Notes: generated by a model from the sequence alone, not told the origin. Positions 41,460-61,791 are shown, numbered from the stretch's first letter. The stretch: DNA of 64,000 nt from Methanobacteriota archaeon (GCA_963719035.1 CAVRAO010000002.1:320001-384000); one strand, 5' to 3'. Translations and numbers: made by a program.

Positions 41460-41862
41460 TGATCGCTCGAATTATGTTTTCCGTACTCGATAGAGTTCCA
41501 CTGTCGTGATACGGTAGCCTTATCACTTTTGAAGGAATGTGCCTTTTTTCAAGGTCCTCTTGAAGTTTGTTCTCGTCAAAATACTGATCGAAACCAAGCG
41601 CTATTATGTCCGGTTTTATTAGTGTGAGGGGTTCGAACATGTCGCGCTCGCTCCCAAGTTCAGCGTGGTCAACCATCTCTAGGGCCTCAACTACTTGCAG
41701 CCGTTGCTGTTCTGGAAGGATAGGTTTTGACTTGTGCTGAACCATCGAATCACGTGACACAATGACAAATAGTTCGTCGCCTAGTTCCTTTGCTTTCCTT
41801 AGATAAAGGATATGACCGGGATGCAAGATATCAAACGTGCCTGTTGCGAGAACCCTAGTCAT
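41437..41862 (-). CDS. ribL: Archaeal FAD synthase
   Basis: ATGTFDILHPGH, PDIIALGFDQ; near rib genes. Confidence 0.85.
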   Translation of the reverse strand: MTRVLATGTFDILHPGHILYLRKAKELGDELFVIVSRDSMVQHKSKPILPEQQRLQVVEALEMVDHAELGSERDMFEPLTLIKPDIIALGFDQYFDENKLQEDLEKRHIPSKVIRLPYHDSGTLSSTENIIRAIIKRRVKC

Positions 41863-42292
41863 TTTCGCCGCCGAAGGTTTCCTTTATGTCTTTATACACA
41901 GCGCTCTCTTCTATTTCAACGTCGAGCACATCGAGTTTTCGAATGTTACCGATTCTATCATAACAAGCCCAGCTCGTGATTTCGTAAGGGTAGCCGACAA
42001 TGATATGATAATCACCATTTTGCATAAACATGCGAATATCTGCATCCGACGGCTGGAGTCCCCCCGACGGATGGCTATGCACTGATCCTACAATATGTGT
42101 ATTCACGGGTAACATGAACAGATCCATAACCGCATTGACATTTGAAGACTGAGTAATAGGGACGTCCACATCAGTTATGATCTGGTCAGTCTCATACAAC
42201 ATCCCAGCAAATTCCTTGGGATGAGAGGACGCACTCACTTCAAGTACAAACTTCAATGCGTCACGTGCGATGCCTTTGATCTTCTTTTTCAT
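41855..42292 (-). CDS. JAMM/MPN+ metalloprotease family protein
   Basis: HPKEF, GSVHSHPS..PS.AD. Confidence 0.9.
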   Translation of the reverse strand: MKKKIKGIARDALKFVLEVSASSHPKEFAGMLYETDQIITDVDVPITQSSNVNAVMDLFMLPVNTHIVGSVHSHPSGGLQPSDADIRMFMQNGDYHIIVGYPYEITSWACYDRIGNIRKLDVLDVEIEESAVYKDIKETFGGEND

Positions 42293-42388
42293 AAGCGCTA
42301 CCTAGTTGTATACTCCCGCTAGATCATTTTTACTCTGTCAAAATACGAAGGACAAAAAAGCCGCTTTGTCTATTCCACCGTTTCTCAT

Positions 42389-42461
42389 TTGTGCCTCAGA
42401 ACTCATAGGGATCATCATTGCGTTTTTAACGCTCGGGATTTAAAATACATCATCGGCGCAA
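42389..42461 (-). ncRNA. Box C/D guide sRNA (sR-tMet-like)
   Basis: Minus strand: gcgcc-g-ATGATGT-ATTTTAAATC-CCGA-gcgttaaaaacgca-ATGATGA-TCCCTATGAGTT-CTGA-ggcac; terminal stem; TATA-like element at ~42483-42494. Confidence 0.8.
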
Positions 42462-42621
42462 GTGCAATTTGAACTTCTCTGTATTATAGATATACCTCGT
42501 TGTCCCCGCAACACCTGCAGCCTACAAACGCTCTCCGCGAGCATTGGCGTCGAGAAGATCACCTTGCAGGACTTGCTAGGGACTCAGATTTCGCGTAAAA
42601 ATGACAACGACAACGTTATGA

Positions 42622-42704
42622 TGCGGAGGGAGGGATTCGAACCCGCGAACTCCTGTGAGAGTGGATCTTGAGCCCACCGCCGTTGACCACTTGGCTACCT
42701 CCGC
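42622..42704 (-). tRNA. tRNA-Leu(CAA)
   Basis: GCGGAGG acceptor, GTGGG-CT-CAA-GA-TCCAC arm, long variable arm, GGTTCGAATCC. Confidence 0.96.
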
Positions 42705-48163: not shown

Positions 48164-48455
48164 GGAGAGAGGGTGAGTGGCTGCCGGTGAAACTCGCTGA
48201 GGAAAGTCCTCCCACCTTCTGGACGTGTGAGCGAGGAGACTCGCATGGCGAGAGTCATGGCTCTGACACAGAAACGATACGTCCCTGCAAACATGAGTAT
48301 GAGGTGAAGAACCGACGAGAGCAGGGGTTACGATGGAACGGTGAATCCTCACAGGTGCAAGCTAAAAAGGGTGAATGAACAGTCCAGATAACACCCAGGT
48401 TAAGCGCTTAGATAAATGCCACTTGAAACAGAAGGAGGCTTACAACCCTCACTCC
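48164..48455 (+). ncRNA. rnpB: RNase P RNA (archaeal type A)
   Basis: GAGGAAAGTCC near 5' end, ACAGAAGGAGGCTTA near 3' end, P1 GGAGAGAGGGT/ACCCTCACTCC, P6 CTGGAC/GTCCAG, P8 and P9 hairpins. Confidence 0.95.
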
Positions 48456-54710: not shown

Positions 54711-54764
54711 TCCTGCGTCATTCACTTGACTTTAAATCACAAGCTAGTAAAAAAACACAACTAG

Positions 54765-54849
54765 TGGACTCGACGGGAATCGAACCCGTGGCATCCACGT
54801 ATTTCTCCTGAGATGCGAACGTGGCACTCTACCCCTGAGTTACGAGCCC
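54765..54849 (-). tRNA. tRNA-Ala(CGC) with 13-nt intron at 37/38 (54801-54813)
   Basis: GGGCTCG/CGAGTCC-A acceptor with G3:U70; CCACG-TT-CGC-A[intron]A-CGTGG; GGTTCGATTCC. Confidence 0.92.
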
Positions 54850-61567: not shown

Positions 61568-61661
61568 GGGCTCGTAGCTCAGTTAGGCAGAGCACCTGGC
61601 TTTTAACCGAGATCTTAGGAGAGATACCAGGCGGTCAGGGGTTCAAATCCCTTCGAGCCCG
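61568..61661 (+). tRNA. tRNA-Lys(UUU) with 20-nt intron at 37/38 (61606-61625)
   Basis: GGGCTCG/CGAGCCC-G; CCTGG-CT-TTT-A[intron]A-CCAGG; BHB with CTTT/AGAG helix. Confidence 0.94.
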
Positions 61662-61791
61662 CCTTCTCTACCAGCCAATCGACAGACGCAGCAAATCTCT
61701 AAATGTCAACAGACGAAGATTATCGCTCAGTTATTGATGAATTTCGGAAATAAATTCATCGTCGTAATTGTGGAGACTGTTTGGGGGGCGC

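Follow-up and report, generated by a model that had tools for sequence, protein, structure and literature searches.

What does the 329-nt gap between a tRNA-Leu(CAA) gene and a minus-strand open reading frame of 145 amino acids (41855-42292) encode, and which tRNAs would its product modify? The gap lies in a 64,000-nt stretch of the genome of a Methanobacteriota archaeon (GCA_963719035.1, CAVRAO010000002.1:320001-384000; the window below), an uncultured relative of methanogens. The original prediction, made from the sequence of the window, placed a box C/D small RNA (sRNA) here and proposed that its two guides methylate the wobble positions of two tRNAs, elongator tRNA-Met and tRNA-Leu(UAA). 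We consider it highly probable that the element is a single-guide box C/D sRNA, which would direct 2'-O-methylation of wobble C34 (giving Cm34) on unspliced elongator pre-tRNA-Met; the proposed tRNA-Leu(UAA) half of the prediction did not survive comparison with the genome.

All parts of the predicted RNA, namely boxes C, D', C' and D, the terminal stem and an internal hairpin, as well as the upstream TATA-like element, were recovered on the minus strand, with the RNA itself at 42390-42460 and all coordinates agreeing within 1 nt. Read from 42460 to 42390, the layout is tgcgcc-g-ATGATGT-ATTTTAAATC-CCGA-GCGTTAAAAACGC-a-ATGATGA-TCCCTATGAGTT-CTGA-ggcaca. This corresponds to an RNA with the order and spacing AUGAUGU-10 nt-CCGA-14 nt-AUGAUGA-12 nt-CUGA, in which boxes C and D' are each one base off consensus. 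The order C-D'-C'-D with spacers of about 10-12 nt is that of an archaeal box C/D sRNA, and PMC7994747 gives 10-12 nt as the range of archaeal guide lengths. The terminal stem of a kink-turn (K-turn), joining boxes C and D, is also present, with 82% of its cells (helix 1) paired in an alignment of related loci described below. From these features we infer a box C/D sRNA of ~71 nt, running from 42460 to 42390 on the minus strand.

The arrangement is single in its genome and conserved outside it. A four-box regular expression (C-N8-13-D'-N2-20-C'-N10-13-D), applied to both strands of the genome that contains the window (G000; 2,190,301 bases in 13 contigs, 91% complete, ~49% G+C), matched once, and it had no match in six controls, the reversed genome and five window-shuffled genomes. 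A 111-nt blastn query recovered the element from 15 of the 17 further genomes in the genus, the two misses being ~60% complete, and from four of six genomes of a sister genus; the C'-guide-D part alone was matched in seven genomes from other families of the phylum. Among the 27 loci parsed from these matches, which represent at least five families, box C', CCCTATGAGTT (CTCT in one locus) and CTGA with its stem GGC are near-invariant. Within the 16 same-genus loci, the D guide varies in one of 12 columns (mean pairwise identity 0.99), whereas all ten columns of the D' spacer vary (identity 0.59, nine versions); the flanks range from 0.42 to 0.73, the lowest value being that of the 3' trailer. 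The 35-nt trailer (42354-42389, minus strand) keeps its length within the genus (36-41 nt) and not its sequence. The tRNA-Met guide sR-tMet of Haloferax, taken up below, is reported to keep a long 3' extension.

The secondary structure is conserved as well. When the 27 sequences are aligned, 80.1% of the cells of the terminal stem and hairpin are paired, versus 28-44% when the 3' partners are slid by one to three columns. Eight pairs have changed on both sides: the terminal stem has three invariant G-C pairs and four further pairs with compensatory changes, and in the hairpin pairs 31-50, 32-49 and 40-48 (alignment columns) have covaried. The observed covariation score was matched by none of 500 column shuffles, a figure inflated by the relatedness of the sequences. 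The hairpin is found in the genus, and loops of 3-6 nt take its place in other families. Further afield, 31 of 61 related genomes contain a match to the pattern CCCTATGAGNNCTGA (0-1 matches for the reversed control pattern), and a 25-base degenerate pattern yielded at least 119 loci in public genomes, most of them labelled Methanosarcinales; among the matches listed, the labels are mostly Methanosarcina, Methanothrix, Methanolobus, Methanoperedens or relatives. By these matches the lineage belongs with the methanogen-related Euryarchaeota, a group that some records label Halobacteriota. The architecture typical of the genus was also seen in one public record labelled 'Methanomicrobia archaeon' (L069).

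By the N+5 rule, as quoted in PMC7994747, the D guide is expected to pair with AACTCATAGGGA and to select the C of CAT, and the original prediction therefore placed RACUCAUAGGGA at the exon-intron junction of tRNA-Met. A genome-wide scan located GACTCATAGGGT at precisely such a junction (G000:C12:158014-158025), in a tRNA(CAU) gene of 131 nt with two introns or inserts (G000:C12:157953-158083). This gene has the acceptor stem GCCGGGG/CCCCGGC and an anticodon arm reading TCAGA-CTCATA, intron, A-TCTGA. The intron, 26 nt long and inserted after position 37, can be drawn as a canonical bulge-helix-bulge (central helix CUCA/UGAG, outer helix GGU/ACC), and the D loop carries an insert of ~31 nt relative to orthologues of other families. 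Both genera of the family have the D-loop insert, which is absent from the orthologues of four genomes of other families (G052, G059, G029 and G049). ARAGORN missed the gene even with introns allowed, and the Rfam tRNA model gives it 26.7 bits against a cut-off of 29. With its threshold lowered, ARAGORN misread the gene as a tRNA-Leu(gag) with a 58-nt intron, a parse that we rejected. Once the 26-nt intron and a D-loop piece of 28-33 nt had been removed in silico, 40 of the 42 splice variants tried were called as tRNA-Met(cat) by ARAGORN.

Ten uninterrupted Watson-Crick pairs join guide bases 2-11 to A31-A37 and to the GGG that opens the intron, and guide base 1 can add G30·U; the whole duplex lies at G000:C12:158014-158024 and sets base 5 of the guide against C34, the nucleotide that the original prediction had named. 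Since three of the ten pairs fall on intron bases and C34 lies in the central helix of the bulge-helix-bulge, methylation would have to precede splicing. The junction sequence GACTCATAGGG is the best match of the D guide among 48 stable RNAs (8,395 nt), in which 28 of 2,000 shuffled D guides reached a run of ten Watson-Crick pairs. Two other tRNAs with a CAU anticodon, both found by ARAGORN, read GGCTCATAACC, so that three G-C pairs are lost; one of these is read as the initiator.

Three other matches were set aside. The best genome-wide match of the D guide outside the sRNA (C6:53560; 11 Watson-Crick pairs and one G·U) is not in a tRNA-like setting and was not matched by the Rfam tRNA model, and a second copy of CCCTATGAGCACTGA (C6:91502) has no C' box upstream; both were taken as chance. 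In tRNA-Leu(UAG) (G000:C8:322543-322648), the variable arm GTCTCATAGGAG matches part of the D guide with eight Watson-Crick and two G·U pairs of 12, with a variable-arm C at N+5, which is probably also due to chance.

The guide and its target can be followed across genomes. The CTCATA/GGG junction (exon/intron) is present in 22 of the 30 loci of the tRNA search, 18 of them in the family of the window and four in G052, G059, G029 and G049. The tRNA-Met genes of G026 and G058 are intronless, and the families of these two genomes, f4 (0 of 4) and f13 (0 of 2), have neither guide nor junction. Guide and junction are both present in families f2 (4 of 4) and f9 (3 of 3), counts to be read with the caveats that some of the f9 junction matches are the antisense of the sRNA itself and that 11-mers match by chance ~0.4 times per genome in the control. 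In family f3 the junction is present and the exact guide pattern was not matched. As judged from these genomes, the D guide and the tRNA-Met intron are kept or lost together.

Several observations weigh against this reading. An Rfam scan of the window at gathering thresholds returned no C/D family and only RNase P RNA and three tRNAs; under permissive settings the element matches RF01126 (sR41) with 40 bits (E 3.6e-8; gathering score 54) and RF02163 (sR-tMet) with 24.9 bits (E 0.015; gathering score 50). Box C ends in U where the consensus has A, although this U is invariant across the family, the D' box CCGA is off consensus, and the terminal stem contains one C·A mismatch that is U-A in most relatives. 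Under a loose score that counts Watson-Crick pairs, half-weights G·U and tolerates mismatches anywhere, 45 of 300 shuffled D guides equalled the real one, so the match within this one genome is modest by itself, and it is conservation and position that carry the case; we regard the single-genome statistic as supportive, not decisive. The target is probably elongator tRNA-Met and not tRNA-Ile2(CAU), by homology with the Haloferax case and by its acceptor stem, judged against what we take to be the typical acceptor stems of the two tRNAs. When three complete relatives were searched for paralogues of the other CAU tRNA that resemble tRNA-Ile(GAU), the nearest were Arg, Phe and Pro genes, which did not settle the choice between Ile2 and Met. 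Evidence for expression is thin: of four soil metatranscriptome runs, all from one study, with parts of the neighbourhood, one yielded a 94-nt contig over the sRNA (42386-42479, two differences). Such contigs carry neither transcript ends nor strand, stretches that they leave uncovered are uninformative, and RNA libraries can carry DNA, so we treat this contig as a weak hint of transcription.

The second half of the original prediction, that the D' guide pairs with GAUUUAARAU of tRNA-Leu(UAA) to target U34 and that the RNA thus serves both a Met and a Leu wobble position, fails on the sequence of the tRNA. Where GATTTAA[AG]AT was expected, the sole tRNA-Leu(UAA) gene (G000:C8:269342-269442) has GACTTAAGA, and the next base is T in the spliced and A in the unspliced form (as RNA, GACUUAAGA(U/A)). 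A dual guide could still act by tolerating imperfect pairs, and spliced tRNA-Leu(UAA) is indeed the top match of the D' spacer among the 48 stable RNAs, with U34 at N+5, eight Watson-Crick pairs, G37·U and an A·C mismatch at position 32. That mismatch is internal and two bases from U34, however, and the unspliced form offers seven Watson-Crick pairs, one G·U and two mismatches. Of 300 shuffled guides, 110 equalled or bettered the duplex, its longest run of Watson-Crick pairs is nothing unusual (772 of 2,000 shuffles), and shuffle tests over the 48 stable RNAs gave no significant target for the spacer. It is true that a 10-nt spacer falls within the archaeal range given above, that Pyrococcus C/D sRNAs aimed at position 34 of tRNA-Leu(UAA) and tRNA-Leu(CAA) are described in PMC7994747, and that a regular-expression scan of the genome for dedicated wobble guides, too narrow to show absence, gave one unconvincing match for tRNA-Leu(UAA) and none for tRNA-Leu(CAA). 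The comparison within the genus also speaks against a dual guide: the anticodon arm of tRNA-Leu(UAA) is the same in all 14 genomes of the genus compared, while the D' spacer is neither conserved nor co-varying with it, forming seven Watson-Crick pairs in five genomes, six in one and two or three in the remaining eight. Other families have unrelated spacers of 8-9 nt, and in 115 parsed public homologues the spacer is 8-12 nt long with at least 79 distinct sequences among the matches listed. We therefore consider a Um34 (2'-O-methyluridine 34) guide for tRNA-Leu(UAA) improbable, and read the D' spacer as an orphan that lacks a conserved target, with the sRNA apparently acting as a single guide. 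The six genomes with six or seven pairs form one subclade, and TTAA(A/C)TC is kept in the D' spacers of one subclade; for the genomes with AUUUUAAAUC (this genome, G003 and G004), a nascent or decaying Um34 guide that tolerates A·C at position 32 is a long shot. If it existed, a single sRNA would adjust wobble bases in two tRNAs (AUG and UUA/UUG decoding), and the birth or death of a guide could be followed in the genus as a natural series, the target staying fixed.

Other explanations fare no better. The D' spacer might instead target a species-specific RNA such as an mRNA or an unannotated RNA, making the sRNA a dual guide whose second target changes fast. The genome does contain perfect 10-nt complements of the spacer at five other places, and orphan guides are sometimes later given targets beyond rRNA and tRNA (PMC7994747); yet five perfect 10-mers in 4.4 Mb (both strands) are about the chance expectation, the spacer changes almost as rapidly as its flanks, and its length varies from 8 to 12 nt among the homologues listed, so we think this quite unlikely. 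A different function for the D half, in which the RNA is mainly a chaperone or timer of pre-tRNA-Met splicing that opens the bulge-helix-bulge helix containing C34, with methylation secondary or absent, has in its favour that the guide spans the 5' splice site and, from its sequence, would have to open the 4-bp central helix. Conservation extends to all four boxes, however, the 12-nt spacing sets C34 exactly at N+5, fibrillarin is encoded in the genome, and the homologous Haloferax system is reported to yield Cm34 (PMC4033218; PMC6601510), which makes the chaperone function very unlikely. The box motifs are short and no Rfam family reaches its gathering score, as would be the case for a chance grouping of motifs in intergenic DNA, but the single occurrence of the arrangement with none in six controls, the near-invariant boxes and D guide next to fast-evolving flanks, the compensatory changes in the stems and the recurrence of the element in relatives and public genomes already contradict this, and its probability is negligible.

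The original prediction had noted a tRNA-Leu gene upstream. The synteny is real, as all 16 same-genus loci have a tRNA-Leu-like 3' end at 143-177 nt upstream of box C, but the gene in the window is a tRNA-Leu(CAA) and not a tRNA-Leu(UAA), and the D' spacer does not match it. In one sister-genus locus (L024, on G021:C35), the tRNA-Leu 3' end is only 13 nt upstream of box C; this locus is without the TTTAAA element that the other four sister-genus loci have. This arrangement suggests co-transcription of tRNA and sRNA in G021, with the sRNA 5' end produced by RNase Z-type 3' processing of the tRNA.

In the genus of the window the sRNA probably has its own promoter. In 15 of the 16 same-genus loci, the distance from the start of a CTATAA-type element to box C downstream is 34-36 nt; as the promoter, this element would set the start at the foot of the terminal stem, ~6-8 nt ahead of box C. 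Fourteen of the 16 also have five or more consecutive T, the first of them 36-41 nt past box D, so the primary transcript may be ~105-110 nt long and trimmed at its 3' end. For the locus of the window, we propose that transcription starts at the TATA-type promoter and ends at the oligo-T run ~37 nt downstream, and that the transcript is trimmed back to the core protected by a ribonucleoprotein (RNP). L7Ae would bind both the terminal C/D K-turn and the internal C'/D' K-turn closed by the hairpin, and Nop5 and fibrillarin would complete the RNP; genes for all three proteins of a C/D RNP are present in the genome. The 12-nt D guide would then pair with the unspliced elongator pre-tRNA-Met(CAU), and fibrillarin would 2'-O-methylate wobble C34, opposite guide base 5. 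The features involved are collected in Table 1.

Table 1. Parts of the sRNA locus and genes for the predicted RNP proteins (positions in the window unless a genome contig is given).
Feature	Position	Strand	Remarks
TATA-like element CTATAATA	42482-42489	minus	~26-27 nt upstream of predicted 5' end
Terminal stem, 5' strand ugcgcc	42455-42460	minus	Partner is 42390-42395
Box C, AUGAUGU	42447-42453	minus	Same in 16/16 same-genus loci; TGATG invariant in 27/27 loci
D' spacer ATTTTAAATC (RNA AUUUUAAAUC)	42437-42446	minus	Read as orphan, unconstrained guide
Box D', CCGA (non-consensus)	42433-42436	minus	In same-genus loci CCGA 15/16, CTGA 1/16
Hairpin GCGUU-AAA-AACGC between D' and C'	42420-42432	minus	Predicted to close C'/D' as K-turn, not K-loop
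Box C', AUGAUGA	42412-42418	minus	Near-invariant in 27 loci
D guide TCCCTATGAGTT (RNA UCCCUAUGAGUU)	42400-42411	minus	Base 5 (g42404) opposite C34
Box D, CUGA	42396-42399	minus	Invariant in 27 loci
Terminal stem, 3' strand ggcaca	42390-42395	minus	Partner is 42455-42460
Oligo-T run, 6 T	42354-42359	minus	37 nt past box D; likely transcription stop
tRNA-Leu(CAA) gene	42622-42704	minus	ARAGORN and Rfam; upstream on same strand; syntenic context, not target
Fibrillarin gene	G000:C8:236245-236844		PF01269, 220.9 bits
Nop5 gene	G000:C8:235769-236185		PF01798, 149.1 bits; adjoins fibrillarin gene
L7Ae gene	G000:C2:316500-316775		PF01248, 91.3 bits

Haloferax volcanii sR-tMet (RF02163) was reportedly described as a tRNA-Met guide by Joardar et al. 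in 2011. Like it, the element is a predicted stand-alone (exonic) box C/D sRNA of ~70-75 nt whose D guide, CCCUAUGAGU in sR-tMet, is complementary to the anticodon loop and first intron bases of elongator pre-tRNA-Met with C34 at N+5. Both have a second guide without a known target, and in the Rfam alignment sR-tMet also matches the non-consensus CCGA D' box (written 'Ccga') followed by a G-C hairpin between D' and C'. The two differ in that the hairpin is 5 bp here and ~9 in the sR-tMet model, box C ends in U here, and the host is an uncultured methanogen relative whose tRNA-Met has a second, D-loop intron and whose sRNA is known from its sequence. The sharing of a hairpin-closed C'/D' motif and a CCGA D' box with haloarchaeal sR-tMet suggests that this architecture is older than the haloarchaea.

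The best Rfam match, RF01126 (sR41), agrees with the element in the order of its boxes and in the guide core GCCCUAUGAG that precedes box D; unlike the element here, with its 11-nt insertion forming a hairpin, the sR41 model has a short K-loop. The core CCCUAUGAG (also CCCTATGAG) before box D is common to the RF01126 and RF02163 alignments. Members from Methanosarcinales (Methanosarcina, Methanothrix, Methanolobus and others) are identical to the element in C' box, D guide, D box and GGC stem, the identity of the guide being fixed by the search pattern, and share a short and variable D' spacer; they differ in having a consensus CTGA D' box, a K-loop of 3-6 nt and a box C of RTGATGA. As described in PMC2584109, a C/D sRNA encoded separately guides Cm34 in the intron-containing tRNA-Met, with candidates in 18 archaea, and the guide duplex includes intron bases, so that methylation must precede splicing. 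The Pyrococcus guide that this paper calls sR49 has the same job as is predicted here; the paper uses the name sR41 for a Pyrococcus RNA with a 23S target, which may differ from the sR41 of Rfam. Both PMC4033218 and PMC6601510 name sR-tMet as the guide for Cm34 in haloarchaea, and tRNA-targeting sRNAs are said in PMC7994747 usually to have one working and one orphan guide. On these comparisons, the element is most simply placed as an unannotated, sub-threshold member of the known archaeal tRNA-Met Cm34 guide family.

Two further systems resemble it in function. Human SNORD97/SCARNA97, as described in PMC6601510, are box C/D RNPs whose 2'-O-methylation site is wobble C34 in elongator tRNA-Met(CAT); they are eukaryotic and intron-encoded, work as two cooperating guides and use a target without an intron share, and we claim a functional likeness and not homology. 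The guide in the archaeal pre-tRNA-Trp intron directs Cm34 (and Um39) on the unspliced pre-tRNA with intron bases in the duplex (PMC2584109; PMC4033218), but it lies inside the intron of its own target and uses both guides, whereas the RNA described here is a separate gene with one predicted working guide. In the genome of the window, tRNA-Trp(CCA) (G000:C8:151456-151626) has a 95-nt intron in which the C/D-like boxes ATGATGA...CTGA and GTGATG...CTGA can be recognized by eye; these are the putative classic intron-borne guide for C34 and U39 of the same tRNA.

Other RNA genes were noticed along the way. The window contains a full-length archaeal RNase P RNA (48165-48454, plus strand, 216 bits), a tRNA-Lys(UUU) of 96 nt that evidently contains an intron (61568-61663, plus strand, 59.8 bits in Rfam), and a gene at 54764-54849 (minus strand) that ARAGORN by default reports as 'tRNA-???' with a 4-base anticodon (cgca) and, with introns allowed, as tRNA-Ala(CGC) with a 13-nt intron. 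Many tRNA genes of the genome contain introns, and the 16S, tRNA-Ala and 23S genes form one operon. With introns allowed, ARAGORN also called a 'tRNA-Stop(tta)' at C8:151159-151269 and a 'tRNA-SeC(tca)' at C8:441302-441389; their anticodon regions, cctTTGgat and cttCGgag, suggest mis-parsed intron-containing genes for tRNA-Gln(UUG) and a tRNA-Arg. The call of a 424-nt 'tRNA-Arg(gcg)' at C2:557062, which would have a 330-nt intron, is probably spurious.

What the locus offers is a gain in annotation rather than a discovery. Both partners escape standard thresholds, the sRNA because no Rfam C/D family reaches its gathering score and the tRNA-Met because it is missed by ARAGORN and falls below the Rfam cut-off. 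The case also warns against assigning a second target to a short, AT-rich spacer of a single-guide sRNA. If the preferred reading is correct, intron-dependent guiding of Cm34 before splicing would extend to an uncultured methanogen relative and across the Methanosarcinales. The hairpin-closed C'/D' motif known from haloarchaea is not confined to them. As the same guide is found in genetically tractable Methanosarcina species, its function should be directly testable there.

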